DNA of 64,000 bases. It comes from Rhodospirillales bacterium. Lineage in GTDB: Bacteria > Pseudomonadota > Alphaproteobacteria > Rhodospirillales > UBA2165. Where the stretch lies: positions 18,788-82,787 of the forward strand of contig CBDBMR010000004.1 in NCBI GenBank assembly GCA_965207535.1. The letters run 5' to 3'. This document shows, in pieces, positions 1,086-19,837 of this stretch. The translations under genes and the position numbers were made by a program. Numbering within the stretch: position 1 is the stretch's first letter; the number at the start of each line of letters is the position of its first letter. The notes below the pieces were generated by a model. The model was not told the origin of the DNA, made no database searches, and saw nothing but the letters and a program-made list of their open reading frames with translations.

Positions 1086-1889
1086 ATGATAGTTCATGGG
1101 CATGTGATGATGATTTTCGATGCGGCGTCAAAAAATCATTTGCCTTGCGGGGTGCGCGAGGTGCGTAATTGGCAATTACCACATTTAAGGCGGGTGAAGT
1201 TTGAATGGCCGCCTACCCGGCTCTTGAACAAAATCCATGCGCTGCATAACCGTCACGGGATCAAGCTGAAGAAGGAAAGCCTGTCCAGCAAGCGCCGCCT
1301 GATGGCGCTCGACATCGGCCGGTTCTCCGCCCTCGAGCAGGTCGAGCTCAAGGTGGTGCGCGACCAGGCCCTGGGCCTGACCGAGTCGGTCGCCGAACTG
1401 GACCGGGAGATCGAGCGCGCCGCCGGCGCCATGGACGGCTACGACAGCCTGGTCAGCATCAAGGGTATCGGTCCGCGTGCGGCCGCGGTCTTCCTGTCCG
1501 GCATCGGCGACGTCAACGACTTCGAGAGCGCCGACAAGCTGGCCGCCTATCTCGGCATCGTGCCCAGGGTCAGTCAATCGAACGAGTCGGTCAATTCGCG
1601 AAGCGAAATGATCTTAACCGACAACCGGGGGCGGATCACCAAGCGGGGCAACAAGCTGGTGCGCACCACGCTGGTGCAATGCACGCTGATCGCGATCCGC
1701 TACTCCGGCTATCTCAATGCCTTCTACCGCCGCATCAAGGAGCGGCGGGGCGCCGGCAAGGCGATCATCGCCACCGCCCGGAAGCTGCTCAAAATCATCT
1801 ACGACACGCTGAAAAACGGCTGGGTCTTCGAAGACTTTCCAAACTTCAAGAGACAGCAGGAACCCGTTTCCGCTGGACAACCATTATAG
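1086..1889 (+). pseudogene. IS110-family transposase, 5'-truncated remnant (C-terminal half only; the N-terminal DEDD/RuvC-like domain is missing)
   Basis: From about nt 1205 the ORF reads TRLLNKIHALHNRHGI...GIGPRAAAVFLSGIGDVNDFESADKLAAYLGIVPR...RITKRGNKLVRTTLVQ...AIIATARKLLKIIYDTLKNG, the conserved C-terminal half of IS110/IS116/IS902 transposases. The first ~40 codons are unrelated lower-GC sequence. It carries an in-frame ~12-codon insert (repeat 1584..1622). Confidence 0.8.
1584..1622 (+). repeat. Copy 1 of a ~38-nt direct repeat, inside the IS110 remnant ORF
   Basis: GAGTCGGTCAATTCGCGAAGCGAAATGATCTTAACCGAC compared with 1929..1966 GAGTCGGTCAATTCGGGACGAAATGACCTTAATTGATG. The first 15 nt are identical and about 31 of 38 aligned positions match, with two small indels. 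Confidence 0.8.
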
Positions 1890-1928
1890 GAGGTTTTGGA
1901 TGCGTCGGACGGAGTTGTTACAGGGACT

Positions 1929-1966
1929 GAGTCGGTCAATTCGGGACGAAATGACCTTAATTGATG
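1929..1966 (+). repeat. Copy 2 of the ~38-nt direct repeat, at the junction between the IS110 remnant and the truncated relaxase
   Basis: See copy 1. This copy lies 40 nt after the transposase stop codon and ends 5 nt before the first codon of the relaxase ORF. Confidence 0.8.
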
Positions 1967-1970
1967 AAGT

Positions 1971-4781
1971 TTGAAGAGGTTTACGGGCGCACCTGTCGCG
2001 GTGCGCTGGATCAAACGCCTCGGCAAGCGCGGCAAGGAGGGCGAGATCCATCACCGCCCCGGCCGCGACCTGGCCTTCAGCGCGCCCAAGAGCGTGTCCC
2101 TGGCCGCCCTGGTCGGCGGCGACGGGCGCATCGTCGAGGCGCATGACCGCGCCGTGGCGGGGGCGCTCGACTGGTTCGAGCGGAACGCCGCCGAGACCCG
2201 GATGCGGGACCCGGTACAGGGGCGCATGGTCCGGGCGGGCAACCAGAAGACGGTGATCGCCACCTTCCGCCACGACACGTCGCGGAACCTCGATCCCGCG
2301 CTGCACACCCATTCGGTGATCGCCAACATGGTGCAAGGCGAGGACGGCAAGTGGCGGACCATGGCCAACGAGCGGCTCTATGCCTCGAAGATGGCGCTGG
2401 GGGCGCTCTACCGCAACGCGCTGGCGGGCGAGCTCGGGAAGCTCGGCTACGCCATAGAGAAGACCCATGCCGACGGCCGGTTCGAGATCGCCGGTGTCTC
2501 GCGGGACATCGTGGAAGCCTTCTCCACGCGGCGGGCCGAAATCGAGGCGGCCATGGAGAGCCGGGGTCTGGGCACGACGGGTGAGAACCCGCACCTCGCC
2601 CGGCGCGCGGCGCTGATGACCCGGGCGGCCAAGCGCGAGGTGGACCGCGATGAACTGCGCGAGACCTGGGAGAAGCAGGCCGCCGCCCTCGGCTTCGACG
2701 CCAAGGGGCTGGTCGCGGAGGCGGTGGAGCGGGAATCGGCCGGTATGGCCCCACGGCGCAGCCTCGATGGGACCCTCGGGCCGACGAACGGCAGGACCCA
2801 TGACGGCCCCGGCGCCGCCGGCCGGGACGGAGCACCGGCGGCGGCGCGCCAGCCGGACCTGTTCGAGCACGCCGCGAAGGCGGACCCCGCGCGAACGGCG
2901 ATGGACTGGGCATTGGCCCATCTCTCGGAGCGCGATGCGGTGTTTTCCGATACCGGCCTGTTCGCGGCCGCGCTCGCCTTTGACCCCGGTTCGGCATCCA
3001 TCGGCGCCATCGAGCGGGCGGTGGAAGAGCTCAAGCGCGATGGCCGGCTGCACGATGCGCCGGGGCTGGCGGGCGGCGGCGGATTGACCACCGACAGGGC
3101 GCTGGCCGGGGAGCGGGAGACGGTCGCGCTGATGCGGAGCGGCGAACGGCGCGGCAAGGCACCCATGCGGGGCTGGATGGTGGAGCGGCACCTGCGCAAG
3201 GGACCGCTCACTGCCGGGCAGAAACAGGCGGTCAAGCTCATCCTGACCGAAAAGGACAGAACGGTGGGCGTCCAGGGCTACGCGGGCACGGGGAAGACGA
3301 AGATGCTGGCGCGTGCGAGGACGCTCGCCGGGAAGAAGGGCTGGCGCATGGTGGGCTTGGCGCCCTCGGCCTCGGCCGCGCGCACGCTCAACCAGGAATC
3401 CGGTATCGGTTCGGAGACCCTGCAACGCTTCCTCGCCCGCAACGCGGGCGTCGCCGAGGGCAGGCTGACCAGGAGGGGCGCGAAGGAAATGCGCAAGGCG
3501 TTCGCGAAGACCGTGCTGGTGGTCGACGAGGGCTCTCTCACATCCACCGTCCAGGCCCGCGACCTGCTCAGGATCGCGGGCGAACTGCGCATCCCGAAGC
3601 TGGTGCTGGTGGGGGATTCCAAACAGCTCGACGCGGTGGATGCCGGCAAGCCCTTCGCCCAGCTTCAGCAGGCGGGCATGAAGATGGCGGTGATGGACGA
3701 GATCCTGCGCCAGCGCGATCCCGGCCTGAAGGCGGCCGTGGAGGCGAGCCTCGCGGGTGAGATCGGCAAGGCATTCGACAGGCTCGGCGCCAATGTGGCC
3801 GAGGTCAAGGCCGACAACATCGCGGGCGCGGTGGCGGCAAGGTGGCTCAGGCTCTCCCCGGAGATGCGCGAGCACACCGGGGTGATGGCCCCGAGCCACG
3901 CGCTGCGGGAAGGCATCAACGGCCATATCCGCGAGCGCCTGGTGCGCGAGGGCCGTATTACCGGCCCCGTCCTGGAGACCTCGCGCCTGGTCTCGAAGGG
4001 CTACACCAACGCCGAGAAGTCGCTCGCGGCCAACTATGCACCGGGCGACGTGGTCGCGTTCCACCGTCCCTACAAACGGATCGGCGCCGCCAACGGCGAG
4101 GAGCGCCGGGTCGCCGGCGTCGACCGCAAGGAGGGAACCGTGCTGCTCGAAGCCCCGGGCGGCGGCACCGTCGCCTGGAAGCCGTCGGAGATCGGCGGGC
4201 GGCGGGGCGGAACGGAGGTCTACCGCCGCGAGAGCATGGAGCTTCGCGCCGGCGACCGCATCCGCTGGACCCGCAACGACAAGGGGCTCGGGCTGGTCAA
4301 CAGCGGGACCGCCGAAGTCATGGGCATCCGGAACGGCCGGGTGACGTTTCGGCTGGAGGACGGGCGCAGGCTCACGCTGACCCCGGGCGATCCGCAGCTT
4401 CGCCATCTGGACCATGCCTGGTGCTCGACCGTGCATGCGTTCCAGGGCCGCACGGTCGACAATGTTATTGCTGCGATGGAGGCGAACCATCCGGCATTGA
4501 CCACGCAGAAAGCGTTATACGTGGAAATCTCACGCGCCCGCGACCGGGCGGAGCTCGTGACCGACGACGCGCAGGCGCTCAAGGAACGCCTTGAAGCGGT
4601 CACGGGGATGCGCCTCTCGGCGCTGGAAGGCATCGGCGAGGACGTAAGCAGGGCGGGCGAGCGCGACGAAAGGGCCGCCCGGGAGAAGACGGAGCCGTCG
4701 AGGGACAGGATCGCACGCTCGACGCCGGAGCCCGAGCCAGCGGCGAAGACGAAGGTGCGCGAGATGAACCTCGGATTATAA
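1971..4781 (+). pseudogene. MOBF-type conjugative relaxase-helicase (TrwC/TraI/TraA-like), N-terminally truncated
   Basis: RDLAFSAPKSVSLAALVGGD and the His triad FRHDTSRNLDPALHTHSVIANM indicate a TrwC relaxase fold. RecD-like helicase motifs follow: Walker A GVQGYAGTGKT, Walker B VLVVDEGS, and C-terminal STVHAFQGRTVDNVI. The ~60-70 N-terminal residues that carry the catalytic Tyr in TrwC-type relaxases are absent. Confidence 0.8.
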
Positions 4782-5630: not shown

Positions 5631-6017
5631 TCACGCTGAATCCTCGCCCAGGGCCTCCGCCATCGTCTTGCGCCCATCGTTGAGGATGTCCTCAAGCTCC
5701 TGCTTGCGCTCTTCGCGGAGCAATTCCTGACCGCGGAGCGTGGCCAGCAGGTAGACGCCGCGGTAGATGTCCTCGATCAGCGAGAGATAACCGGGCGGGA
5801 TCGCGTCCTCGTCGGGCCTGTCGAGACGCTCCTCGGCGGCGGCGAGGGTCGCGGAACGGACGAGCTGGCTGGCCGGGATCCCCTGGCGCAGGGCCGCGTC
5901 CTCGACCAGTTGCCACTCCGAATCGGAGAACCGGATGGTGCGCGAGCGGCGGAAGTCGCCCGCACGGTCTTCGGATTCGTTCGGCTTCTCGTGAGATTTG
6001 CGAGGGTTTCGTGCCAT
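5631..6017 (-). CDS. Ribbon-helix-helix protein, MobC/CopG-like (orphan relaxosome accessory protein or regulator)
   Basis: The ATG at 6017 has SD AAGGAG upstream; the longer ORF back to 6272 was rejected. RTIRFSDSEWQLVEDAALRQGIPASQLVRSATLAAA fits a beta-strand plus two helices, as in RHH proteins. Confidence 0.55.
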   Translation of the reverse strand: MARNPRKSHEKPNESEDRAGDFRRSRTIRFSDSEWQLVEDAALRQGIPASQLVRSATLAAAEERLDRPDEDAIPPGYLSLIEDIYRGVYLLATLRGQELLREERKQELEDILNDGRKTMAEALGEDSA

Positions 6018-6976: not shown

Positions 6977-7909
6977 TTACGCGGCGGCCTTCATGACGGG
7001 GATGCCGCGCTGCCGGGCCTTGTCGATCAGGTTCTCGGTGATACCGCTGCCGGGGAAGGCGATGACGCCCTTGGGCAGGAGGTTGAGCAGTTCGTCGTTG
7101 CGGCGGAACGGGGCAGCGCGCCCGTGGCGGTTCCAATCGGGCTTGCACACCACTTGGTGGATGCCGTTCGTCTCGGCCCACTTCGCGGCGATCTTCTCGA
7201 CGCCGGGGCCGCCGCCGTGGACCAGCACCATGTCGGCATACTTGGCCCGCGCCTTGTCGAGGTTGCGGATGACGGTGCCCGCGTCGGCGACGATCTTGCC
7301 GCCGGCGACGGCGACCAGGGTGCCGGCGGGCAGGTGCGCCCGGGTCTCGCGGTCTTTACGCGCCCGGATGAAATCGCGGGCGTCGATGGCGGCGGAGGTG
7401 AGCGCGCCGGTCCGGCTGGTGTGGCTGCCGTGCCGGGGCCGCCAGGTGTTGCCGGTCACGGCGCGGTACTGTTCGGCGGCCGCGTCGCGCAGGGTCTCGA
7501 AAGCGTCGCGGCGGTCGCCGAGGTTGCGCGCTCGGTCCGTCAGCAGTTCCAGCTCGTGGGCCTTCACTTCGCTGCCGTCCTGCGCGGTCTGGAGATCGCG
7601 AATCTCCGGGGCGAGCCGGTCGACGGCGCGGTCGAGCCGCTGGGTCTGGGCGTGCAGCATGTTGACGAACCCCCACAGCATCTGTTCGCGTTCGTCGGCG
7701 ATCTGGAACCCGTCGGGGCAGACGCCCTGGGCGATGATGCGGAAGGCATCCTCGACGGCGCCAGTGGCATCGTCTTCGTCCCAGACCTCGCGGGTATCGG
7801 TCTCGCCGCGCTCGGGCGCCGCGCCGTAGAGGGCGGCGTTCTCGCAGACGGTTGCGGTCATGGACTGCGCTTCGGTGTCGATGGGGTATACGTTCTCGAT
7901 GATGTTCAT
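6977..7909 (-). CDS. DUF2493 (SLOG/YspA-like) domain protein typical of conjugative-element backbones
   Basis: SD AGGAGA lies upstream of the ATG. The C-terminal MVLVHGGGPGVEKIAAKWAETNGIHQVVCKPDW...RNDELL...VIAFPGSGITENLIDKARQRGIPV is a Rossmann-like SLOG pattern. Confidence 0.7.
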   Translation of the reverse strand: MNIIENVYPIDTEAQSMTATVCENAALYGAAPERGETDTREVWDEDDATGAVEDAFRIIAQGVCPDGFQIADEREQMLWGFVNMLHAQTQRLDRAVDRLAPEIRDLQTAQDGSEVKAHELELLTDRARNLGDRRDAFETLRDAAAEQYRAVTGNTWRPRHGSHTSRTGALTSAAIDARDFIRARKDRETRAHLPAGTLVAVAGGKIVADAGTVIRNLDKARAKYADMVLVHGGGPGVEKIAAKWAETNGIHQVVCKPDWNRHGRAAPFRRNDELLNLLPKGVIAFPGSGITENLIDKARQRGIPVMKAAA

Positions 7910-8032
7910 AACGGTCTCCTGTTGCGTCCACCGGAGCGTTGCGCGCCGATGTGATGTCTCTTTGGCTTACGCGCGCGCAGGGGAAGCACCTGGCCTTACG
8001 GGGTCTTGGGGCGGGGTGGTGCGGAAAGCCGC

Positions 8033-8090
8033 CGATCTTGGTGCGGAAGATCGCCTTTGATCTTCACGGTCGGCGGCTTTCACGGCCCGC
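8033..8090. repeat. Extended imperfect hairpin (12-bp outer stem plus 7-bp inner stem) in a 380-bp intergenic gap
   Basis: GAAAGCCGCCGA (8033-8044) pairs with TCGGCGGCTTTC (8079-8090). Inner stem: GAAGATC (8055-8061) pairs with GATCTTC (8068-8074). No U-tract follows on either strand. Confidence 0.7.
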
Positions 8091-8293
8091 CCCTAGACCT
8101 CGTTGGGCCGGGCCGCAGGGCGTCTTCGCCCGGAGGACCCCGCAGGGGTTGCTGGACCGAGCACGTGTGGGACAATGAGACAACACAGTGGCCAGCTTTT
8201 TCCTTGCCGCCCGCACGGCCCCATGGGCGGTTCGGCTCGTACGGCGTTGCCCGTCCGGGCAGAGATCGTGCCGCCCACCGCCAACGCCGGCGG

Positions 8294-8515
8294 CTACCGA
8301 AACGGGTGGGTGTCCACCATCGACGTAACCACCTCACATATGCGTCCACGCTCGTGGATGCGGCGGAAGCCTCGCGGGTCCTCGTCGAGGTGGGCGACAT
8401 AGGTCACGCCGCCGCCGGGCACGTCGCTCTGGCGATAGAGATAGCCCACGGGCTCACCGTCGGCCATGATTAGCGCTTCGTTCTCGCCGGTGCGTCTAAA
8501 GGCGATGTCGGTCAT
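8294..8515 (-). CDS. Small hypothetical protein (73 aa)
   Basis: Only the last 73 codons of ORF 8294..9361 look coding. The ATG at 8515 is preceded by GGGAGA. Sequence: MTDIAFRRTGENEALIMADGEPVGYLYRQ... Confidence 0.5.
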   Translation of the reverse strand: MTDIAFRRTGENEALIMADGEPVGYLYRQSDVPGGGVTYVAHLDEDPRGFRRIHERGRICEVVTSMVDTHPFR

Positions 8516-8667: not shown

Positions 8668-9144
8668 CTAGAACGGTATCCCGTCCGTGCCGGTATCGCC
8701 GGCCTGGGCCGGGGCGTCCGCGGCCGGGCTGTCCGAACCGCTCACGGGCGCCTCGTTCCCGGCCTCGGCCGCCGCGCCGCTGCCGTTTGCCCCGTTCGAC
8801 TTGTCGAGGAACTGGATTCGCGAGCCGGGGACCAGCAGGATCTCGGTCGAGAACCGGTCGGTGTCCTCTCCGTCCTTGCGCCAGCGCCGCGTCTGCATTT
8901 TGCCCGCGACGTAGACCAACCGGCCCTTCCGGGCGTTCTTCTCCAGCATGTCGACCAGGCCGGACTGGAACGTGACGGCGCGGTGCCACTCGGTCCTGTC
9001 GATGCGCTCCCCGTTCTTGTCGATGTAGCTCTCGTCGGTGGCGATGCTGAGGTTGGCCACGCGGCCCCCCGACACCAGGTTGTTGACCGTGACGTCGGCG
9101 CCGAGGCGGCCGATGACTTCCGCGCGATTCAATCCGAAGCTCAT
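8668..9144 (-). CDS. ssb: Single-stranded DNA-binding protein
   Basis: The ATG at 9144 is preceded by GAGGAG. OB-fold N-domain: LNRAEVIGRLGADVTV...TEWHRAVTF...GRLVYVAGKMQTRRW. It has a Gly/Ala/Ser-rich linker and an acidic tail ending DGIPF. Confidence 0.9.
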   Translation of the reverse strand: MSFGLNRAEVIGRLGADVTVNNLVSGGRVANLSIATDESYIDKNGERIDRTEWHRAVTFQSGLVDMLEKNARKGRLVYVAGKMQTRRWRKDGEDTDRFSTEILLVPGSRIQFLDKSNGANGSGAAAEAGNEAPVSGSDSPAADAPAQAGDTGTDGIPF

Positions 9145-9245
9145 AATCTTGCTCCTCATGCTCTCGTTGATGACGATGGGTTCCGAACGGCCGGGGCCGG
9201 AACCTCTCTCCAGCCCCTTCCGCCCGCTTTCTTCCCGCTTTTCTC

Positions 9246-9377
9246 TCACTCTCCTTCACCGCCGGGGGGTGCGAGGACCTCGCGGACGGCCCGGGGGTCG
9301 AGCCCCGCCTCGGCCAGCAGCTCACCGCCGGCGGGAATGTCGTGGCCGGTATCGGCGTCATGATCGAAGTCGAACAT
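9246..9377 (-). CDS. Possible 43-aa acidic small protein (below the ORF-track length cutoff)
   Basis: My own translation: TAAAAGGAGATAGCG-ATG then MFDFDHDADTGHDIPAGGELLAEAGLDPRAVREVLAPPGGEGE, stop at 9246. It has a strong SD and sits between the zinc-ribbon gene and ssb. Confidence 0.4.
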   Translation of the reverse strand: MFDFDHDADTGHDIPAGGELLAEAGLDPRAVREVLAPPGGEGE

Positions 9378-9493: not shown

Positions 9494-10513
9494 TTATTCC
9501 CACGCCGCCATGGCCGCGAGCGGGCTCGCCTCGCGCACCATCTCGACCCCCTCGGGGGAGAGCTTCTCGAAGGCGAGCCAGGCGGCGGCCTCCATCTCGT
9601 CGTCGAACACGCCGAGGCACTCCCCGGTCCCGCGCAGATACACCGTGATGGTGGGCGGATAGACCGGCATCCCCCGGAAGTGGGCGGACCGCTCGTGGGA
9701 GCGCTTCGCGCAGGCGGGACAGCGGCAGGCGCCGAACGCCGGCGCGCCGCAATCGGTGCAGGCCGAGCGGGCGCGGCGGGCGGCATACCTTTTTCGGGCC
9801 GCCGCGTTCTTCCGTTCGGGACACTTGCCGGCGTCCTCGATCGCAGCGCATCGCGCACATCGGGACCGGCCGTCTAGGACCGGTGTACCGCACCGGGTGC
9901 AGCAGCCGGCGGCCCTGTGTTCGACGTACTGCCGGCGTTCCCGCTCCTGCCGTTTCTCGCGGCATGGGGCGCAGGTCGTCCCGCCCTCGACGGGCGGGCG
10001 CTTGCCGCACCGGATACAGAGGCCTGCTTCCTTGCGCGCCTTCTGGTTCCGCTTGCTCTTGGCCCGGGCGGACTTTCTCTTTGCAGTTGCATTGGCGCCG
10101 CCGTAAAGCTTCCCGGCAGCCTTGCCAGCCCGGTATTTTGCGCGGTCGGACGCCCGCCTCTTCTCCAGACACCCCTCGCAGGCGGTGCGCGCTGGCGCGG
10201 CCGGGGCCTTGCCGCAGCGAACGCAGATGCCGGCGGCCCGGCGTTCGGCGGCCAGCCGGCGGGCGTGCTTGCGCTGGAAGGCTCTCGCCTTGTCCGGGTC
10301 ACGCCTGGGCAGGGCGGCGGCCCGCAGCCGCGCATCCCGGGTCCGGGATGCGCGATTGCCCTTCTCGGCGCAACCTGCGCAGAGGCGGCGCTCCGGTCCG
10401 GGCGGGTGCACTCCACACCGCGGGCAGAGCCCGGCGGCGGTGCGTTCGGCGGTCCGTTTTCTGAACCGCTCGCGGTCGCGCTGTCGGCGAACTTCGGGAT
10501 CTGCATAGGCCAC
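9494..10513 (-). CDS. Protein with five tandem CxxCG...CxxC zinc-ribbon repeats plus a ~50-aa C-terminal YPP...DDEMEAAAWLAF domain
   Basis: A GTG start at 10513 follows GGGAG with a 7-nt spacer. The five units are CPRCGVHPPGPERRLCAGC, CVRCGKAPAAPARTACEGC, CIRCGKRPPVEGGTTCAPC, CTRCGTPVLDGRSRCARC and CTDCGAPAFGACRCPAC. Each is followed by a Lys/Arg-rich stretch. The tail is homologous to the tail of the recombinase at 32635. Confidence 0.65.
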   Translation of the reverse strand: MAYADPEVRRQRDRERFRKRTAERTAAGLCPRCGVHPPGPERRLCAGCAEKGNRASRTRDARLRAAALPRRDPDKARAFQRKHARRLAAERRAAGICVRCGKAPAAPARTACEGCLEKRRASDRAKYRAGKAAGKLYGGANATAKRKSARAKSKRNQKARKEAGLCIRCGKRPPVEGGTTCAPCREKRQERERRQYVEHRAAGCCTRCGTPVLDGRSRCARCAAIEDAGKCPERKNAAARKRYAARRARSACTDCGAPAFGACRCPACAKRSHERSAHFRGMPVYPPTITVYLRGTGECLGVFDDEMEAAAWLAFEKLSPEGVEMVREASPLAAMAAWE

Positions 10514-11163: not shown

Positions 11164-12099
11164 CTATCTAACCGTTTTCTCCGGCGCTTCTTCGATCAGC
11201 TTTCTGAGCAGATTAAGGTGGACTACCAAGTCGTCCTCCTTGGGTAATTGAACCTGTTCCCTATTGTGGTGCAGCACGTCATTTGCAAGCTGCCTAAGTC
11301 GGTGTAACTCAGCCTTTGGGACGGGCAAGTTGGTGCAGCTCTCGATACGAGTATGCAAATTGCCGTCGGATGCCCCGTAGTGCTTGGACAAAGTCTTCTC
11401 CAGAATTGATCTCATGAGCGCGAGCGCGGCGAACGGCACTCCATACACAAATGCCTCTTGTGCTTGCCGCAACAATGTTCGAAGGGATAAAGCCTCAGTT
11501 TCTCCATGGTGGCGGTCGACGTGCCGGGGGATCAATACGAATGGCACCAGGATTCGTCGCCGGATTATGCCTCGTAAATCTAACCCCGCTTGAGAACGCA
11601 GGCGTTCCCAGTACACCACTCCTTCCAATATTTCCTCAACATAGTCTTCCGGAAATGAGCGGGACTCATCGGAGGCCTGCTCATCGGCAAAACTAATTGC
11701 CTCCTCTATCCGATTAGCCTGATATCGAGCATGGGCATCAGCCGCCTCTATCTCCGATTCAAGGCTTGGTTTCGAAGTAAAGAATTTAGTGACGGATTCA
11801 CTACCCAGAAAGTCAGAGAGAGAAACGTTCTCCACCGGAATTGCATACCGTTCTTCAAAGTCTCTCCATTTATTCACAAATTGTGGGTTCTCCGGGCCAG
11901 CAAAGAGTTGGCGTTCCAACCGTTCGTAGCGCCTTAGCCGGGAAGCCACGTCAAGAACTTCGAGGCAAATCCCTTTAACCGGCTCATCGGACTCGGCCAG
12001 CGCCTCGAGTCCAGACGGATCATCGTCAGTGTATTCCTGGAGCTTGAAATACAGGGCCATAAATTTCACAACTAGTTCGTGGTCCTTCTCGACCGCCAT
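11164..12099 (-). CDS. Hypothetical protein with a DUF4145-like (HEPN-related) C-terminal domain
   Basis: Lower-GC gene. The C-terminus AQEAFVYGVPFAALALMRSILEKTLSKHY...LHRLRQLANDVLHH resembles the DUF4145 pattern (helical hairpin, then hxxhRxxGNxxxH). Confidence 0.45.
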   Translation of the reverse strand: MAVEKDHELVVKFMALYFKLQEYTDDDPSGLEALAESDEPVKGICLEVLDVASRLRRYERLERQLFAGPENPQFVNKWRDFEERYAIPVENVSLSDFLGSESVTKFFTSKPSLESEIEAADAHARYQANRIEEAISFADEQASDESRSFPEDYVEEILEGVVYWERLRSQAGLDLRGIIRRRILVPFVLIPRHVDRHHGETEALSLRTLLRQAQEAFVYGVPFAALALMRSILEKTLSKHYGASDGNLHTRIESCTNLPVPKAELHRLRQLANDVLHHNREQVQLPKEDDLVVHLNLLRKLIEEAPEKTVR

Positions 12100-12204
12100 C
12101 GTCGACCGCTTTCGCCTTTGCTCTTAGTGGTTCATCGGGGCCTATTATGAATGATTGATTGGGAGCTTATATGGAAGACTTGAGAGTTTGACGGAAAAGC
12201 CGCC

Positions 12205-12243
12205 ACTCCCTAGCCTTTCCCGTGAAGGGCAGGGGAGGAAAGA
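12205..12243 (+). promoter_or_regulatory. 5' leader of 12244..12849; inverted-repeat partner of 13272..13316
   Basis: ctccCTAGCCTTtCCCGTGaagggcaGGGGAGGaAAgaATG compared with the reverse complement of the right copy, tttCCTAGCCTTcCCCGTGtttgtcacGGGAGGgAAAaATG. Confidence 0.6.
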
Positions 12244-12849
12244 ATGGGGCTAAAAAACTGGGCCAAACGCGAGCGCCGTTCCCTGCTGGCAATCCTGATG
12301 ACACCCGCTCTTGTCACCGCCTTGTGGCTGGCAAGCGCGACCCTGGTTGCCGCCGAGGAAGTGAGCATTACCGACAAGGTCAGACTGTTTAACCAGTGCG
12401 GCGGCGTTTATCTGTCGGTAAACATCATTGATTTCGATAGAGCCGAAAAAAATAGGCTGACAGAAAAGCAGGTTGCGGCGGAGGTGCGCAACCGACTTCA
12501 GCGAGCCCGTATTTACAATACAGAACCCAACTTCAATAGGATGTTGAGGCTGGATGAGAAGGAGAGGTGGATCTTCGAGTCACCCAAGAATTTGAGGAGG
12601 CTCCATGTCTACATGCGTTTTGATAGACCAATAGCCAGAATAGACATTTCTCTCCAGAGGGTTATTAACCATCCTACTACACTGGGCCGCGACGGTCCTT
12701 TCAAAACAACTTGGAACAAACGAGTCTTTGGCATACATGTAGCCGTCGATGAAAGCCGCCCCTACGGCTATGTTTGGCTTAACCTCATCGACTTAATTGA
12801 CGAATTCATCGAGGAGTACCTTCGGGTAAACGCGGACGCCTGCAAGTGA
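12244..12849 (+). CDS. Exported hypothetical protein (N-terminal signal/TM helix)
   Basis: SD AGGAGGA upstream. The N-terminus RRSLLAILMTPALVTALWLASATLVAAEE is signal-peptide-like. No recognisable domain. Confidence 0.55.
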   Translation: MGLKNWAKRERRSLLAILMTPALVTALWLASATLVAAEEVSITDKVRLFNQCGGVYLSVNIIDFDRAEKNRLTEKQVAAEVRNRLQRARIYNTEPNFNRMLRLDEKERWIFESPKNLRRLHVYMRFDRPIARIDISLQRVINHPTTLGRDGPFKTTWNKRVFGIHVAVDESRPYGYVWLNLIDLIDEFIEEYLRVNADACK

Positions 12850-12896
12850 TCGAAAGTGTCCAAATCCCGCACCCTGTCAAGTTTTCTATATAGGTC

Positions 12897-13271
12897 CTAT
12901 CTCTTTAAGGTTTTGATGACAGCCAAGTCCCTAAGGCGTTGCCGTAGGTTTGCCAATTTCCTCTTGGCGGCCCCAACTCGGTTGTTAGCCAGATTCCAAT
13001 TCCAACTATCGTCGAAAATTGCCCGGCCATCTGCCACCACCTGTGGCACGCTCTCAATCCGGGCTCTGTCGGCTTCAGCGTTTGCCAATTCGGACTCCAA
13101 CTGATGTATCTGTCTCAGCAAGACATCGGGGTCGGTCGAATAACTGATATTCGGCTGAGTGCGATTGTTCTGATAGCCGCCGCTGCCAACACAGCCAGTT
13201 AGAACTAATCCAAGTGCTACCAATAGGCAGACCGAAATTCGACCAGTTGCTTTGCCGCATCTACCGACCAT
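12897..13271 (-). CDS. Hypothetical lipoprotein
   Basis: The ATG at 13271 is preceded by GGGAGGG. Lipobox: ISVCLLVALGLVLTGC. The C-terminal half looks coiled-coil (QLESELANAEADRARIE...). Confidence 0.55.
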   Translation of the reverse strand: MVGRCGKATGRISVCLLVALGLVLTGCVGSGGYQNNRTQPNISYSTDPDVLLRQIHQLESELANAEADRARIESVPQVVADGRAIFDDSWNWNLANNRVGAAKRKLANLRQRLRDLAVIKTLKR

Positions 13272-13316
13272 TTTTCCCTCCCGTGACAAACACGGGGAAG
13301 GCTAGGAAACAGCGGC
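13272..13316 (-). promoter_or_regulatory. 5' leader of the lipoprotein gene; inverted-repeat partner of 12205..12243
   Basis: See 12205..12243. It contains the hairpin CCCGTG/CACGGG, whose 3' arm overlaps the SD. Confidence 0.6.
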
Positions 13317-13839
13317 TATTTCGTCAATCTGTCAGGCTTTCTATATAAGCTCCTAAGGAAATGTCGGATTTGGCATTTGTGAAACGTCGCTGGCGTTTCA
13401 AAGGCGATTATTGTTCCAACCTTCTCCGCCCCTGTGACAACGTATGGATCGGCAAGGTAGGCGCAGTAACTCGCTGGTAGGTAGGCGACTCCCGCCCGAT
13501 ATCCTTCGAGAACAGCAAGGCGCCCGGGTCGCGGTATCCAGGCAGCGCCTCGACGACGGGCCGCGCGGCTGCGCTGAGCGGACCGGCCTTCGAATCGTCG
13601 AAAGACACTGTCGGGGCCATGGAAAAACCGACCGCTGGATCTCGCCGACTTGTGCGAGCGCACCGAGGCCGACGAAAACATCGCCGTCATCTTCGATCTG
13701 GACGCCGGAGACTCCAACCAAATCGTTAACCTATGCACGAAGAGCAAGAACATATGAGAGGCGAGATACGTGCACCACACACGCCACCCGGGCCAGCGCC
13801 GGCCGCGTCCGGCCGGCGTGGAACGATGTGGTTTCTCGG

Positions 13840-14145
13840 TCAGACGAGTTTGGCGCCGGTTGGCACTAGACCGGTTTCAGAGAACCGCCAAAGCGCAATA
13901 AGCAGCTTGCGGGCGAGCGCCACAACCATCACCCGGCGGATGCGCCCGCGAGCCCCGGCGGTGCGCTCGTTGAACTACTTGCTGAGCGCGCTATCGGGCT
14001 GATAGCGCAACCAGCGCCAGGCCATTTGGATGAGTTGTGCCCGGATCCATGCCGGATCGTCGCGGCCAATCCCCTGGTCGCGCTGCGTCTCGCGGCGACC
14101 GTCGCAGTGGAACCGGATTTATGCAGCGCCTTGGTCATGTTCGAA
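13840..14145 (-). pseudogene. IS110-family transposase 3' fragment with an in-frame stop
   Basis: My own translation of the minus strand: ...RDQGIGRDDPAWIRAQLIQMAWRWLRYQPDSALSK*FNERTAGARGRIRRVMVVALARKLLIALWRFSETGLVPTGAKLV*. This is the characteristic IS110 C-terminus (AWxWLRxQP...SxWF...IVALARKLLIALWR). A TAG sits where Trp is expected, and the 5' two-thirds of the gene is absent. Confidence 0.75.
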
Positions 14146-14348
14146 CCCTATCACGTTCCTTCGGCGGGGGTGATAAGCGATTGCTCCGGTGCGATTGCCC
14201 CGGGATTTCCCCGTGCTGGCGGACTGCGGTGGGCCGGCTGGGCAGCATGGGTGTGCCAAGGACGGTTCAGCCGTGCAGCGACCGGCAGCGATTCAATCAG
14301 ATCGCATTTGGAGCGGTTGGAAGGCTTTGGCCCTATAGTCGCCGATGC

Positions 14349-17300
14349 TCAAACGGACCTCTTTCGTGCCCTCCAAGGCAAAAGACTCTTTGTGACTCTC
14401 TGTGTGGTGAATGTCTGCTGCAGCGACTTCTCGTTGTCCGATATGGCGCGTTTGAACGCATGCCTCTGCTGTTTTACGAACCGCCGCTTCAAATCTTCTA
14501 AGGAGCCGTTTCCAACTGCATATTGGTCGTAGTCCTGGGACATCCATGTCCTGGCACGCCGGTCGCTACAGGCTATGAACAAACGCCAAAAGGCATGAGC
14601 AGCCTCGGCCGTATCAGCTTCGGCAAACTTCCGAAACCAATGGACGGCGAAGGCCTCTCTTTGGCCCATAATCCAGGAGTCATCATGTATATCCTGATAT
14701 TCGCCTATCGACGGGCCGCTTGGCCATTCCGCATCCCCAGCGATAGTGGGTCGAACGAACATGGGCTGAAGAAAGGCAGCCCGGCGTCGGTGTGCTGGGC
14801 AAGACGAACTTTCGTCTGAAGAAATTCTCTGCCCTAACCAGTCGATCCGGCCGGAACTTCGGGCCGCAACGACGATATCGAGTAAATCTTCGTCGGTTCG
14901 CGCTTCGTCGAGGTCGCATAGTTCATCCAAGACGGATTCGACCGCAGGACAATCCGGCGCCATGAATGGAGCAAATTTCAATCTGTCGATCCCGGTAAGG
15001 CCGATGAACCTCGTGGACTGACACTCTCGCAGGGCACGCCACAAAGGAATTCCACGAGACGGGTCACGTTTCAATACGGCCTCACATAGCCCGACGAAAA
15101 ACCCCTCGGCCAATCGAACTCTCCGGCGAAATTCATCCGTGAGCCGGTCGATGCCATCAAGCCAGCGGTCCAACGCCTCTGGACAGAGGTCGAGAACCTG
15201 ATCGAAGTCATCGGCGTGAAATCGGGTATGAAGAAATTGTGCCCCAGACTGCCGCGCCTGCCCGACGGCATTGATATAGGATTGAATGATCGTTCGTCGG
15301 CGCTCTTCATACTGTTCTGGCCTATTGACCCGTTCAAGGAGGGAACGGATATCATTCCCGTCGTCGCGATCTTCCACGATTTCACCGATCGTGAAATTGT
15401 AGTTCCCGGTGGAAGAGGCCTCATAGTCATGGAAGATATCGAGCCCCGATTCTGGAGCGTCCTTTTGGTATTGAGCCAGCGCGTTGGAAAGCAGATCCAC
15501 AGCAAGCTGTGCTTCATCCGGGAGCCGCGCTTCCCGGGACAGGGCTTCCAGCAACAGGAAGGGGGCGATCCGAGCGGCAAAATCAGAAAATCGGCGACCA
15601 CGGTGCGAGGCAATGATACCTCTTGAACCCATGATGTTTACCATGTGCGGCTGTGAGCACGACCATGACCAGTCTCTTTGATCGAGAGCATGTCCCAAGC
15701 ATTCTGCAGCGTTGGAACCCAGCAGGGCCCACGCTGCTTCAGAGGCGCCGTCTGAATCGGTGGAGAACAGGAGCTCGGAAAGGGCGTCGAACGCAGTTTC
15801 ACTGAGATCCAATTCGTATTCGACAAGGACGCTTGCTAATCGGTTCAACTTCCGCCTGTCGCCACCGCACAAAGCAATCAACTGATCGAGTTCGCTGGCG
15901 GACGGAGAATGGCAGACTCCCCCAAGACCCAGGAAGACGGGATCGATTTCTGAATCCAGAATTTTCGTCACTTGTTCTATAGGTGAGGCGCACTGAATTT
16001 CAGCAATCAGTAGGCCGGTCTGAATCAAGAGTTCGTCATCGTCAGATTCCCCGTGCCCTTGTTTCCTCAAGGTTTGCAGAGCTGCACTTTCTTCGTCCCT
16101 TACCAAGAGCATGACTTCCGGGGCAGCGAGCGCGGAACCAAAACGCTGATCTGGCGTACGTTCTGCAAATTGCCTCAATCGAGCGCGCTCGCAGTTAGCA
16201 AGACAGTCTGGATTGCATCTTGCAAGAGCGAGAGACAGGCGTTTCCATTGATCATCTTCGGACGTACGGTCCCTGCCCGTTGCCGTTTGGCTGAAATCGA
16301 AGCTCTCCGACACTACCGTCAGTTCATCAATGAAGTCTTGGGGAACCTGAAAGCTCGGATCGAGCAAAGCATCCTTTGACTTATTTATCCGACCAAACAT
16401 GGCAAGCGTCTTATCACAAAGCACCCTCGCCACGTGTCTTCGTTCGAGCCGAAAGTAAGAGCGCGCAGGATCGGAGAGATAGTCTCGCTCGTATTCAAAG
16501 ATGTGATCGATCTTGGGATCCATCGTCCAAGCCTCTTGCGCATCTTCGGAATATCCGGTGCGCCAAAGCAGGATGGATGCAATCCGCGCGTTGAGTTTCG
16601 GATGGTGGCCGGCTTCTACGGGAAGTGACCGTATTTCTTGGGATGCCGATCGAAGTCCTGCGGCTGTCTCTTCAGGATCAACGACATTGAGAATGTTCAG
16701 CCAGTACTGGGTTTCCTGTGCTGCCCCGCTACCAACGAGAGCAATTTGAATTGCCCCGTGAACGAAGAACTCGACGGCGTCCTTTAAGGGGCGTCCTTGC
16801 AACAGTTGAGCCGCCGCGACAATCAAATCTTCACCACTGTAGTCGACGATCTCGAAATTGCGGCACGCAATGGCGATCGTACCCGGCTCGGCTACACCTA
16901 TACGCTCCTTCAGGCGTTTGCACCGGCGCGCGTAACGTGAGTTGTCGGTGCGATCTGCTTCGTCCCCCCTCTTCTCGAGAGAGATGCAGTCTAGCCATCT
17001 CGATACGCGTTCCGCGATGGTTGCTGCAACGGCGGGGTCAGCCTTGTCGACCGCAGCTAGTACGTCGATGGCGATGTGCCTTGCAGTCGTTAGCGAATGC
17101 CCGCGGGAGGTTTCGATGACATCGAGCATCGGCGTAACCAGTGCGGGCGCAAGGACTTCAAGGTCGCCAAGATGGCTCTCGGGAACGTTCTGAGAATGAA
17201 GCCAACGAGTGCATAATGTGCCGAGCCATGCCGGTGATTCTGACTCGCTTCGCAGGAGGGCAATGGTCACAGCGGCGCGGAGAATCTCGGCGCGAACGTC

Positions 17301-19016
17301 ATATCCAGCGATGGGATCAAGGAAGTTGTCGAGTATGGTTGCCGGCTGTTCGCCGGGCTTGGCCCTGTCCATCTGAGAGACCAGCGCAAGACCCACGGCA
17401 TGGGAAACGAAATCGGGGTCGAATTCCAGCTCACCGTCCCGGTCGAGGGTGGCGAATATGCCGTCGATAACGCCTGAAACCCGGTGATAAACCTGATCCG
17501 ATGTTTGTATGGCCGAGGCGCTTAAGCTCTCGATGCGTTGACGTGTCGAGCGATTGCTTCCGTCTCTGTAGTCACGTGCCAGTTCCAGCAAGAACTGTCG
17601 CCATTCCGCCTCGCTGAAGGCACCGACCGATGCTTCTTGGATCGTGAATGCGCCGTAGGCCCAGAGAAGGCGATGGACGGTGACCTCTCCAACATCACCC
17701 AACTCCGACCTTAAACGGATGATGAGATCGAACATGCGCGGAATAGCGGCATGGTGAAGCAGCCGATCAGGCAAGTCGCCTCGGGAAAGGCCGGCGCCCT
17801 GCAGTTTCAGGTCCAATTCTCCGCCGGGTGTCAGATCGTAGTTTCCCACGTCGGTCCGATGGAGCGGAGCGATAAGGTTCGAAAGACGATGGAGCCGGTC
17901 CTCAAAAAAAGCGGTGCGCGTCGAAATCAGAGTTTGGACGCGTTGGTGGAAAGGAGCGTCTTCCAGCTGATGAAGGAGGCCGAGCCAATCACGCGAAGGG
18001 AGCTGGTTAATGCCATCGAAAAAGAGAAGGAACACATGGCCTTCATCGGCGGGCCGCGTTAGGAACCGTCCAACCCGTTTCTCCCAGTACAAAACGTCAC
18101 GCACTTCCGAAATATCGTGCAGGTACCGCGCAATCAAATGTAGCGCTTCATTTCCCCCGGAATCCGCGTGGCCAAGGGCTGAGGAGGGGGCGAGCACAAC
18201 TATAGGCAAGCTGTTTTGCCGATATTGCAGCCAATCCAGTGCAGCCCATGTCTTGCCCACACCTTCGGAGCCCACCAACGCCCCAACGGTGCCGTCATCA
18301 GAGCTATCGAGCCAAGAATCCAGGCTATCGATCAGGTTTGATCGGCGCACATGTCGTGCATTCTCGTCGCCGCCGGCCACATTCTGGCGAAACTTAGCCT
18401 GCGCCCTCCGACGCGAAGTCCAGATTTCTCGAAGGCGGCGATGACTGGAGTCTCGTACGGCGTCGTATCCGATCAACCAACTCTGGAGTTCTCTCTCGAT
18501 GAGTTGCAGCGTGGAAGCGTACTCTGGCAGTTCCGATATTCGCTTGAGAAGGGGCCTGTGTTGTTCGCCGAACTCGGTCGAAAAAAATTCCGGGCAGCTG
18601 GCGGCGAGAGCGGCAAGCCTCGGCAAAGGACGCGGCAACCAGTCGATCGAGACTGTGGCGATGCCATTGCTCAGGCCGACCTCGCCCATGGCATCCTGGA
18701 TCTGTTCAGGAACTTCTAGAGTCGTAACCAAGAGCCAAGCTTCGAGATCGGGGTGGCGTTTGCATGCCTGATCGATTTCACCGCGGATGCTTCGCTCGTC
18801 GAGCCTCGAGTTCGACCCGTAGCGGCGGGCCTCGAACACAAGGTATCTTCCTCCAATGCCTGATACACCCCCGTCGCCTCCTCTCTGGTTGCCGGAACGG
18901 GCCTGCCTGAATGGAACCCTCAGCAAGGCACCCAGGGCGAATCCTGCAAGTCGTTCGAGATGCTTCGGATCGGCTTCCAACAGGATCGAACGGAGTTGAT
19001 CGCACAAATCAGGCAT
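14349..19016 (-). CDS. Giant Mrr-like nuclease / STAND P-loop NTPase / long helical C-terminal region protein (Avs-like antiviral STAND candidate), 1,555 aa
   Basis: The ATG at 19016 is preceded by GGGGAG. N-terminus: LERLAGFALGALL...RGGDGGVSG...YLVFEARRYG...AWLLVTTLEVPEQ, which follows Mrr-cat logic (DGG-D ... E-x-K/R ... hhhTT). Walker A GSEGVGKTW lies at 18249-18272, and the Walker B-like motif is HVFLLFFDGINQL. More than 1,000 further residues carry no motif I recognise. Confidence 0.7.
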   Translation of the reverse strand: MPDLCDQLRSILLEADPKHLERLAGFALGALLRVPFRQARSGNQRGGDGGVSGIGGRYLVFEARRYGSNSRLDERSIRGEIDQACKRHPDLEAWLLVTTLEVPEQIQDAMGEVGLSNGIATVSIDWLPRPLPRLAALAASCPEFFSTEFGEQHRPLLKRISELPEYASTLQLIERELQSWLIGYDAVRDSSHRRLREIWTSRRRAQAKFRQNVAGGDENARHVRRSNLIDSLDSWLDSSDDGTVGALVGSEGVGKTWAALDWLQYRQNSLPIVVLAPSSALGHADSGGNEALHLIARYLHDISEVRDVLYWEKRVGRFLTRPADEGHVFLLFFDGINQLPSRDWLGLLHQLEDAPFHQRVQTLISTRTAFFEDRLHRLSNLIAPLHRTDVGNYDLTPGGELDLKLQGAGLSRGDLPDRLLHHAAIPRMFDLIIRLRSELGDVGEVTVHRLLWAYGAFTIQEASVGAFSEAEWRQFLLELARDYRDGSNRSTRQRIESLSASAIQTSDQVYHRVSGVIDGIFATLDRDGELEFDPDFVSHAVGLALVSQMDRAKPGEQPATILDNFLDPIAGYDVRAEILRAAVTIALLRSESESPAWLGTLCTRWLHSQNVPESHLGDLEVLAPALVTPMLDVIETSRGHSLTTARHIAIDVLAAVDKADPAVAATIAERVSRWLDCISLEKRGDEADRTDNSRYARRCKRLKERIGVAEPGTIAIACRNFEIVDYSGEDLIVAAAQLLQGRPLKDAVEFFVHGAIQIALVGSGAAQETQYWLNILNVVDPEETAAGLRSASQEIRSLPVEAGHHPKLNARIASILLWRTGYSEDAQEAWTMDPKIDHIFEYERDYLSDPARSYFRLERRHVARVLCDKTLAMFGRINKSKDALLDPSFQVPQDFIDELTVVSESFDFSQTATGRDRTSEDDQWKRLSLALARCNPDCLANCERARLRQFAERTPDQRFGSALAAPEVMLLVRDEESAALQTLRKQGHGESDDDELLIQTGLLIAEIQCASPIEQVTKILDSEIDPVFLGLGGVCHSPSASELDQLIALCGGDRRKLNRLASVLVEYELDLSETAFDALSELLFSTDSDGASEAAWALLGSNAAECLGHALDQRDWSWSCSQPHMVNIMGSRGIIASHRGRRFSDFAARIAPFLLLEALSREARLPDEAQLAVDLLSNALAQYQKDAPESGLDIFHDYEASSTGNYNFTIGEIVEDRDDGNDIRSLLERVNRPEQYEERRRTIIQSYINAVGQARQSGAQFLHTRFHADDFDQVLDLCPEALDRWLDGIDRLTDEFRRRVRLAEGFFVGLCEAVLKRDPSRGIPLWRALRECQSTRFIGLTGIDRLKFAPFMAPDCPAVESVLDELCDLDEARTDEDLLDIVVAARSSGRIDWLGQRISSDESSSCPAHRRRAAFLQPMFVRPTIAGDAEWPSGPSIGEYQDIHDDSWIMGQREAFAVHWFRKFAEADTAEAAHAFWRLFIACSDRRARTWMSQDYDQYAVGNGSLEDLKRRFVKQQRHAFKRAISDNEKSLQQTFTTQRVTKSLLPWRARKRSV

Positions 19017-19415
19017 ATGGACGCTCCCCTGCATACCGATCATTCCGGGTTGGCAGCTCGATCGTGTGCCAAACGTACCTGGAAATGCAGCGTCCTCGCT
19101 CGGATGCTGTTCCTATACGGTCTGTGTCCTATAACCGAAAATCCACAGCGCGGTGTCAAGACACGCTCAAGAGGCAACACGCGCGAGCCCTAGATCCAGG
19201 CAGTCATTAGGAACCTGTTCTAAGTACATAGTCACTAATCCCAAAGCCCGAACGATGTCGCCATCATCAGACAAGGTGACCGGACTTCGGTTATTCTGCA
19301 TTTATTTCTCCTGCTTGTGGTCAAATGATATTGATCTCTGTTTGTCTGGCGAGGAACTGGGGGTAGCAAGTGTGACGTGAGACTTAACTTCTCTCTAGTC
19401 ATGGGGAGAGACCGG

Positions 19416-19544
19416 TTCCGGGCGATAGTGTAGGAAGCAGGAGGTGACGGATCAATGCAGGGAGGCGCGCGCACCGGCAGCGTGACTTGCCCGGCCAGCA
19501 TCCTTTACGGAAGGCGTAAAACACAGTACGGTCGGCAAGCATGA
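19416..19544 (+). promoter_or_regulatory. Conserved leader motif copy 2 plus a 29-codon uORF overlapping the higB start (ATGA)
   Basis: Motif as at 6655..6703. The uORF runs from ATG 19455 to TGA 19542-19544 (MQGGARTGSVTCPASILYGRRKTQYGRQA), and its stop codon overlaps the higB ATG at 19541. Confidence 0.5.
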
Positions 19545-19819
19545 TTCGAAGCTTCAAGGATCGGGATACGCGCCGCTTCTTCGAGGGGCGGCGCGTCGCG
19601 GCATTCCAGGGCTTCGCCGGTCAGGCCGTGCGCCGGCTGATTTTGCTGGATGGCGCGGAGACGCTTGGCGACCTCGCCGCGCTGCCGAGCAACCGGCTCG
19701 AAGCGTTGCGCGGCGACCGCGCCGGTCAGCACAGCATTCGGATCAACGCGCAATGGCGTGTCTGCTTTCGTTGGACGGACGAAGGGCCGTGCGACGTGGA
19801 GATAGTGGATTATCACTGA
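19541..19819 (+). CDS. higB: HigB-family toxin (RelE/ParE superfamily, 'plasmid maintenance system killer')
   Basis: MIRSFKDRDTRRFFEG...LPSNRLEALRGDRAGQHSIRINAQWRVCFRWTDEGPCDVEIVDYH is the canonical HigB pattern. Confidence 0.85.
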   Translation: MIRSFKDRDTRRFFEGRRVAAFQGFAGQAVRRLILLDGAETLGDLAALPSNRLEALRGDRAGQHSIRINAQWRVCFRWTDEGPCDVEIVDYH

Positions 19820-19837
19820 GGGAGGAGGAGATTTGAC

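Follow-up and report, generated by a model that had tools for sequence, protein, structure and literature searches.

A 64,000-nucleotide stretch of DNA from a Rhodospirillales bacterium (contig CBDBMR010000004.1, positions 18,788 to 82,787; its whole length is called the window here) encodes a 339-residue protein, to which we give the working name Zn5, built from five tandem four-cysteine (Cys4) units that alternate with stretches rich in arginine and lysine. Judged by its conservation, Zn5 is the product of a genuine gene. It belongs to an undescribed family that strings a known kind of zinc finger in tandem, which is an unusual architecture. The gene marks a family of F-type integrative and conjugative elements (ICEs) that seems to occur only in uncultured marine bacteria, among them many sponge symbionts. 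From its sequence and a predicted structure we tentatively propose, at a little under an even chance, that Zn5 serves these MOBF elements as a modular accessory protein that binds DNA in a zinc-dependent way. At present it is best described as a well-supported 'conserved hypothetical' protein with a plausible role.

Why would such a protein matter? Tandem Cys4 fingers alternating with basic helices are a rare architecture in bacteria. If Zn5 does bind transferred DNA, it would represent a new class of accessory DNA-binding protein for conjugation, one without an OB-fold, and the natural series of four to eight repeats found in its relatives could show how repeat number sets binding length. The elements themselves are present in many copies per genome and carry toxin-antitoxin (TA), restriction-modification and methyltransferase genes as cargo, which bears on gene exchange among symbionts.

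The Zn5 gene lies at 9494-10513 on the minus strand and translates without internal stops into 339 residues. The sequence AGGGAG ends 7 nucleotides 5' of its GTG start codon, and several homologues also start with GTG. The G+C content of the gene is 72%, rising to 83% at third codon positions. At least 828 homologues, most of them exactly 339 residues long, turned up in a word-indexed search, and a full hidden Markov model scan of 1.84 billion representative sequences returned 772 clusters at E <= 1e-10. Measured against 12 homologues at 46-72% identity, the pairwise ratio of nonsynonymous to synonymous substitution rates (dN/dS) ranges from 0.27 to 0.53 and is mostly about 0.3. An earlier note on this stretch had allowed that the open reading frame (ORF) might not be translated; its conservation and the dN/dS of about 0.3 point to translation as annotated. 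A longer, ATG-initiated ORF (to 10636, 380 residues) is unsupported, as the lengths and starts of the homologues fit the shorter form: 83 of the 120 best homologues have exactly 339 residues and begin with MAY(A/R)DPE.

Of the 24 cysteines in Zn5, 20 make five CxxCG-N(9-11)-CxxC units. The earlier note had described five tandem Cys4 units and 20 cysteines in a 339-residue ORF, and translation, shuffling and alignment all bear it out. Its account of the spacing needs correction. The spacer between the CxxC pairs is present as described, but it spans 9-11 residues rather than 9-12, and the first three units lie 67 and 69 residues apart, start to start, not about 55-65; the later intervals are 39 and 47 residues. 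AAGL, AAGI, EAGL, AAGC or RSA stands before each unit and a basic helix comes after it, in agreement with the AAG or SA lead-ins and the basic stretches that the note reported.

Could such an array arise by chance in a protein of this composition? In 100,000 shuffles of Zn5, no unit appeared in 97,063, a single unit in 2,916, two in 21 and three or more in none. CxxC motifs number 10 in the protein and 1.6 on average in the shuffles. In an alignment of 27 diverse homologues, every motif cysteine is invariant except one of the 20, C112, which is at least 90% conserved; the extra cysteines at 204, 231, 263 and 299 are not conserved. Conserved arginines also recur at positions i, i+4 and i+8 (R16, R20 and R24).

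An AlphaFold2 model of Zn5, built from a 27-sequence alignment, has a mean predicted local distance difference test score (pLDDT) of 83 and a predicted template modeling score (pTM) of 0.39. Units that are locally confident and have no fixed global arrangement are what would be expected of beads on a string. In the model, the first CxxC of each unit sits in a short hairpin and the second occupies the opening turn of a helix; DSSP places the starts of these helices at residues 46, 113, 182, 220 and 266, at the second CxxC of each unit. By this model the units resemble treble-clef-like fingers of the ComFC/RecR type, a knuckle plus a helix. The term 'zinc ribbon' used in the earlier note is only approximate because the second CxxC stands on the first helical turn: the Cys4 units are there, but the two-hairpin ribbon gives way to a knuckle-plus-helix finger. 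We regard the units as probable Cys4 zinc fingers, each of which would bind zinc.

The two parts of the protein differ sharply in charge. The array (residues 1-278) has a net charge of +50 and a pI of 10.8, and the whole protein, 24% of which is arginine or lysine, has a charge of +44. The remainder is a separate C-terminal domain with a net charge of -6 and a pI of 4.3, in which residues 289-336 are modeled as strand-strand-helix-strand-helix. The earlier note had marked off a distinct domain of some 50 residues here, and it is seen again as an acidic alpha/beta domain of about 60. This domain has no Pfam match. Compared by Foldseek with the predicted viral structures in BFVD, it matches only tiny phage proteins, all weakly, including a DUF2188 protein (E >= 0.1).

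Zn5-family proteins vary in the number of units and keep a constant end. Besides the five-unit form of 339 residues there are forms of six units (380-383 residues, with the extra unit at the N-terminus) and of eight (465-468 residues), and divergent forms have about four to seven; the same C-terminal domain ends all members, from four units to eight. Within the Zn5 gene, DNA-level repeats with 64-76% identity and a spacing of 201-324 nucleotides record duplications of the units. Apparent fusions of Zn5 to an integrase, a DDE transposase, DruA or LolA, seen among representatives clustered at 50% identity, look like frameshifted or chimeric gene calls.

By profile comparison, the array is homologous to proteins of two to four units encoded in phage replication modules. 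The IMG/VR collection contains 34 viral loci with Zn5-like proteins of about 130-335 residues that are 25-33% identical to Zn5. When a four-unit phage protein of 220 residues (locus L088) was aligned with the Zn5 profile, hhalign gave a probability of 98% (E = 2.7e-13) over 160 columns at 35% identity, and the reverse search, seeded with that phage protein, recovered the Zn5-family member P0078 at 1.9e-13. Foldseek likewise matched the array to small multi-zinc phage proteins in BFVD, such as B6CXI6, at E = 1.7e-5 to 8e-5. The phage arrays share with Zn5 the lead-in K/R..Y..R...GLC..CGK, but differ in their smaller length, in having no acidic C-terminal domain and in their low-GC hosts; they too are uncharacterized. 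Their genes come after those for a replisome organizer, a G39P-like helicase loader or an SNF2 helicase, and are followed on the 3' side by genes for a small LuxR/GerE-type regulator and a serine recombinase, at the boundary between early and late genes. Some of these arrays carry HNH-like tails. The protein of L096 (7977-8660) has a C-terminal match to HNH_4 at E = 0.0047, which is below the cut-off, and those of L098 (7974-8981) and L085 (7899-9023) end in an HNH-like EVDHINGDG...LCANCN that we recognized by eye. Such tails suggest that, in a nuclease, a zinc array can be the part that targets DNA.

What company does the Zn5 gene keep? We clustered the ORFs of 82 loci: the window region, the contig loci L001 and L002, and 79 of 80 genome loci. 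Most of the 82 share the order X > Zn5 > p41 > SSB > YAcAr > RHH (ribbon-helix-helix), convergent with a TrwC-type relaxase gene. The earlier note had placed Zn5 upstream of ssb and a DUF2493 gene, in a DNA-processing part of the backbone. Both genes (ssb at 8668-9249 and DUF2493/YAcAr at 6977-7909) do follow Zn5 directly on the same strand, and the DNA-processing block they form with RHH and TrwC is conserved. The tightest partner is X, directly 5' of Zn5 in 76 of the 82 loci. SSB lies about 0.5 kb 3' of Zn5 in 72 of them and YAcAr, with the RHH gene next to it, about 1.6 kb 3' in 57; a convergent TrwC gene is at most 10 kb away in 24. The features of the window are collected in Table 1.

Table 1. 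Zn5, its units, its neighbors and the surrounding cargo in the window
Feature	Position	Strand	Basis or remark
Zn5 coding sequence (339 residues plus stop)	9494..10513	-	GTG start; AGGGAG ribosome-binding site; at least 828 homologues; dN/dS about 0.3
Zn unit 1, C30-x2-C33-G...C45-x2-C48, N11	10370..10426	-	all four Cys invariant; C45/C48 start helix 46-65
Zn unit 2, C97-x2-C100-G...C112-x2-C115, N11	10169..10225	-	motif, alignment, AlphaFold2
Zn unit 3, C166-x2-C169-G...C181-x2-C184, N11	9962..10018	-	motif, alignment, AlphaFold2
Zn unit 4, C205-x2-C208-G...C219-x2-C222, N10	9848..9901	-	motif, alignment, AlphaFold2
Zn unit 5, C252-x2-C255-G...C265-x2-C268, N9	9710..9760	-	motif, alignment, AlphaFold2
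Acidic C-terminal alpha/beta domain (residues 279-339)	9497..9679	-	AlphaFold2, alignment; family-specific, absent from phage relatives
X, basic protein of 108 residues	10609..10935	-	locus clustering, AlphaFold2
p41, acidic peptide of 43 residues, pI 4.1	9246..9377	-	between Zn5 and ssb; core LLAE(A/L/I)G(L/I)D..(A/T)(V/I)RE
SSB, OB-fold	8668..9159	-	Pfam SSB 6e-21; PHROG 44
p73, small ORF 3' of ssb (MTDIAFRRTGENE...THPFR)	8294..8515	-	clusters with homologous ORFs of other loci
Conserved non-coding element, CTGTC(C/T)CATTGT(G/C)CCACACGTGCTC ... AACCCCTNCGGGGT hairpin	8106..8223 (core 8166-8183)	-	5' of YAcAr, after p73
YAcAr/DUF2493 SLOG-family protein, 310 residues	6977..7909	-	Pfam 2e-22
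RHH protein, NikA/DUF6290-like (weak match)	5631..6017	-	Pfam, clustering
TrwC-type (MOBF) relaxase-helicase, 5'-truncated	1971..4781	+	convergent with the operon
Cargo block 5' of X	11164-25173		
DUF4145 protein	11164-12099		
ORF of 1564 residues	14349-19043		no Pfam or PADLOC match
MmeI-type restriction-modification enzyme, complete	20156-22936		
IS110 transposase, intact	24136-25173		
Two tandem tyrosine integrases with Arm-DNA-binding domains	26887-29272		
Separate integrase of 668 residues	32635-34641		

All 303 homologues of X are unnamed and about 108 residues long; at 69-93% identity they are more conserved than Zn5. Its AlphaFold2 model (pLDDT 79) is rich in beta-strands with a C-terminal helix. 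X has no Pfam match, no match in plasmids and only noise in a Foldseek search of the PDB. Relatives of p41, which are 40-60 residues long with a pI of about 4 and a start MF(D/E)..., lie between Zn5 and SSB in most loci in which SSB was located, and they match no known family. Some loci have a second acidic ORF, of 83-88 residues, besides p41. SSB probably starts at M31 or M36 of its 193-residue ORF. The RHH protein is likely to be a relaxosome accessory factor.

Full-length relatives of YAcAr occur on 745 alphaproteobacterial plasmids, most of them conjugative. On one of these, the Sulfitobacter plasmid NZ_CP025813.1 (L084, 3163-9885), YAcAr follows a gene of 1460 residues for a methyltransferase/DEAD-helicase and a toprim gene, which take the place of X, Zn5 and SSB in the elements of sponge symbionts. 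On other plasmids, HU and MucR genes lie beside the YAcAr relatives.

Between p73 and YAcAr is a conserved non-coding element toward which the X-Zn5-SSB operon points. Its 18-nucleotide core recurs in 11 loci with at most three mismatches. It could be an origin of transfer (oriT), a promoter active on single-stranded DNA (ssDNA) or a small RNA; a search of the window from 1 to 30,000, which includes it, gave no Rfam match. A hairpin with a 17-nucleotide inverted repeat lies near it, at 8024-8081.

To what kind of element does this operon belong? Metagenomic relatives of the TrwC gene are preceded by TrbC, TraN, TraF, TraH, TraG and the TraD/TrwB coupling protein, and in L180 and L176 TrwC is followed by RHH and YAcAr. 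Because these type IV secretion system (T4SS) genes precede TrwC in the relatives, we assign the Zn5 elements to an F-type (MPF-F, MOBF) ICE family: they have a relaxase, and TraD and an F-type T4SS are found in the relatives, with integrases flanking many of the loci. The copy in the window is a decayed, non-autonomous remnant because its relaxase is truncated. Residue 15 of the window TrwC aligns to residue 70 of intact relatives, so that about the first 69 residues, including YYERDGYY, are gone. A truncated transposase of the IS110 family, reduced to its C-terminal domain, abuts this TrwC gene, the two together spanning 1086-4781.

The setting resembles that of plasmid leading regions, which carry ssb, methyltransferase and TA genes, many uncharacterized genes and islands of anti-defence genes (PMC11541004). 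The surroundings of Zn5 show the same mixture, with SSB on the 3' side and TA genes, methyltransferases and an MmeI-type enzyme 5' of X.

The earlier note did not recognize the family of Zn5, and curated collections do not name it either. No Pfam or NCBIfam model reaches its threshold on Zn5, neither collection ties it to a well-characterized family, and all named homologues are 'hypothetical'. PADLOC likewise gives no match. The nearest Pfam models, Zn_Ribbon_1, DZR and DZR_2, score 13-15.5 bits on the window protein against cut-offs of 25-27; for DZR_2 (PF18912) the score is 13.0 bits (E = 0.091) against a cut-off of 27. Across the family this model does rather better: 18 of 27 members match it at E <= 0.01, the best at 2.1e-5, and two carry a precomputed PF18912 match. 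Neither zf-dskA_traR nor zf-C4_Topoisom (PF01396) is among the Pfam matches of Zn5 at E <= 10. Among PHROGs there is only a weak match to PHROG 54, a DksA-like finger, over residues 140-196 (E = 0.056). Nor is Zn5 an HNH endonuclease, which would have a His-Asn-His motif between cysteine pairs about 35-40 residues apart; its pairs are separated by only 9-11 residues with no H...N...H between them. In the literature on DUF2493/YAcAr, sponge ICEs and leading-region zinc proteins we found no description of the family.

The closest known finger is that of the competence protein ComFC. In the crystal structure of Helicobacter pylori ComFC, two strands and then a helix make up an N-terminal Cys4 finger (C3, C6, C15 and C18), which in structure is most like the finger of RecR; the protein binds ssDNA and works with DprA (PMC9005727). 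Zn5 shares with this finger, and with DZR_2 and DZR (PF12773), the arrangement CxxC, short spacer, CxxC and then helix, with a spacer of 8 residues in ComFC and of 9-11 in Zn5. There is a likeness of context as well, as ComFC acts on incoming ssDNA together with DprA and the Zn5 gene has those for SSB and a DprA-related SLOG protein as neighbors. The differences are considerable: ComFC joins a single finger to a phosphoribosyltransferase domain, whereas Zn5 and its longer relatives have five to eight fingers, long basic helices, another C-terminal domain and no enzyme domain.

Two other families invite comparison. The Cys4 modules of Escherichia coli topoisomerase I bind ssDNA. The C-terminal ribbons of topoisomerase I (PF01396) are tandem Cys4 modules, as in Zn5, and offer the best functional parallel for a bacterial protein that binds ssDNA through several fingers; unlike those of Zn5, they have longer spacers and two hairpin knuckles, are appended to an enzyme and have no basic helices between them. 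The DksA/TraR finger, found on conjugative elements and phages, resembles Zn5 in having a long helix followed by G-x-C-x2-C-G. However, its spacer is about 17 residues, not 9-11, and it goes with a coiled coil bearing an acidic tip, which Zn5 lacks; the finger of Zn5 is present in multiple copies and the protein is much more basic.

How might Zn5 work? Its units would be strung like beads, with arginine- and lysine-rich helices flanking the fingers, to form an extended, flexible, cationic array. We infer that this array lies along the DNA of the element, most plausibly the ssDNA of transfer or replication intermediates derived from it, and that it acts with the co-encoded SSB and the DprA-related YAcAr to protect or organize that DNA. 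The acidic C-terminal domain may dock or regulate partners such as X, p41, SSB and YAcAr, and the protein would be used in transfer or in establishment. The suggestion in the earlier note that Zn5 is a multivalent nucleic-acid binder thus has circumstantial support, which comes from the +50 array, the range of four to eight units, the homologues in phage replication modules and the HNH-like tails.

A bolder version goes further, and we think it decidedly improbable. It holds that X, Zn5 and p41 form an unrecognized module for ssDNA handling or establishment in a cross-phylum family of F-type ICEs that has multiplied in sponge symbionts; Zn5 would be an ssDNA coat whose length is tuned by its four to eight units, p41 would hold it in an inactive or soluble state, as VirE1 does with VirE2, and Zn5 would perhaps be delivered to the recipient. 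The VirE2/VirE1 pair of Agrobacterium, a translocated ssDNA coat and its small acidic chaperone, is an analogy only to Zn5 and the acidic p41 next to it; the proteins are not homologous, and their genes are ordered differently.

Several points weigh against reading Zn5 as a DNA-binding accessory protein of transfer. Its DNA binding is a prediction from sequence and model. The window protein is under the cut-off of every curated zinc-ribbon family. No solved structure matches: a Foldseek search of the PDB with the full model gave nothing at E <= 0.001, the top matches being to topoisomerase II and MreB over about 40 columns at E of about 0.7-1. The abundance of arginine and alanine encoded by a gene of 72% GC inflates some of the weak similarities. 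The fingers of ComFC, RecR and RadA are not proven DNA contacts; that of ComFC may serve in protein or membrane association instead, and some of these fingers mediate contacts between proteins (PMC9005727). A role in the leading region or in establishment is unproven because oriT has not been located. Part of the intergenic element in the window resembles the nic site of R388 (GTGTTGTCT/CAT), but other loci do not conserve its TTGTCT core, and we dropped this likeness because a 9-mer with one mismatch is expected, by our estimate, about 14 times in 64 kb. The position of oriT makes a difference. If it is within the intergenic element, the transferred strand would be the template for X, Zn5 and SSB, as in leading regions; if it is 5' of the T4SS operon, by analogy with F, entry of the module would come late, and the strand that brings it in would not be the template.

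Might Zn5 instead be a sequence-specific transcription factor, in which each finger and its helix read one sub-site of DNA to switch genes for transfer or establishment? We consider this unlikely. The predicted geometry allows it: a second cysteine pair at the N-terminus of a helix, here a basic one, is the arrangement of the DNA-reading fingers of GATA factors and nuclear receptors. The phage relatives, at the boundary of early and late genes, lie directly 5' of the gene for a small LuxR/GerE-type regulator, and the operon has a conserved non-coding element inside it. The expected binding sites, however, are missing, as no set of five or six repeated sites was found near the Zn5 gene. The motif GGAGAGAGG occurs twice in the window, 5' of both p41 and ssb, but only 7 of 78 loci have it, so that it is not a conserved site. 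A charge of +50 and helices near-invariant on all faces would suit non-specific binding to the DNA backbone better, and the variation from four to eight units in an unchanged neighborhood argues against a fixed operator.

There is a rather smaller probability that Zn5 touches no nucleic acid at all and is a scaffold that recruits the SSB tail, RecA, the replisome, the relaxase or the T4SS coupling protein. The fingers of ComFC, RecR and RadA are implicated in association with partners or membranes, which fits this idea, as do the acidic C-terminal domain and the tight co-inheritance of Zn5 with the small proteins X and p41. Yet a charge of +44 and an arginine and lysine content of 24% would be unusual for a pure protein adaptor, and the placement of the related arrays in phage replication modules, with some of them fused to HNH-like nuclease motifs, also counts against a scaffold.

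We see only a slim chance that Zn5 is an anti-defence or 'stealth' coat that shields incoming DNA from nucleases, or a nucleoid-associated protein of the element. Its gene lies near SSB, TA genes, methyltransferases and an MmeI-type enzyme, as do genes in the anti-defence islands of leading regions (PMC11541004), and the plasmid relatives of YAcAr keep company with the methyltransferase-helicase and toprim genes or with HU and MucR. Against this, Zn5 matches no PADLOC model and is not homologous to any known anti-restriction protein, and a position in the leading region is unproven while oriT has not been found. This proposal also overlaps with the accessory role that we favor and is not sharply separable from it. 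The chance that Zn5 binds RNA, in translation or RNA stability, we put lowest of all: a PDB profile search gave weak matches to the zinc-binding ribosomal proteins eL43 (E = 0.012) and eL37 (E = 0.038), as well as to the N-terminal lead-in of the HNH endonuclease 4h9d (E = 0.095), and the ribosomal matches cover modules laid out as a basic helix followed by xC-x2-CGK, but their E-values are not significant, the conserved neighbors of Zn5 are all DNA-handling genes and no Rfam RNA lies nearby.

Tyrosine integrases bound the region 5' of X, whose cargo varies across the loci (HigBA, VapC and RelE/Xre pairs, methyltransferases). Tandem integrase pairs like that of the window are found next to the module in many related loci, a sign that elements may have inserted side by side. 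No tRNA attachment sites were found. Beyond the integrases, the window encodes an ankyrin-repeat protein of 279 residues with five Ank repeats (35174-36013). Sponge symbionts commonly encode ankyrin-repeat proteins, in keeping with the sponge-associated names of the genomes that carry Zn5.

Where do these elements occur? By tblastn, Zn5 has no match in 72,556 plasmids or 50,697 phage genomes, and X is likewise absent from the plasmid and phage collections. Looking up the exact Zn5 sequence of the window turned up no contig on record. Metagenome-assembled genomes are the source of nearly all 80 genome loci. The hosts are mostly Alphaproteobacteria (Rhodospirillales, Defluviicoccus), with some Gammaproteobacteria (Ca. 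Poriferihabitaceae, Ca. Foliamicus and Ca. Rariloculaceae); Poribacteria and the Gemmatimonadota species Ca. Palauibacter poriticola are represented on short binned contigs only. The names in the record titles point to a sponge or coral holobiont as the source of several hosts.

Many genomes hold several copies of the element, at least 10 in one isolate, and near-identical segments of 8-11 kb are shared among copies. Six loci of a single metagenome-assembled genome (L044, L045, L048, L061, L070 and L071) have common segments of 7.9-10.9 kb that are 97.6-99.7% identical. These six copies share a sharp left edge about 3.8 kb 5' of Zn5, where a 784-bp tandem duplication carries a DDE transposase gene.

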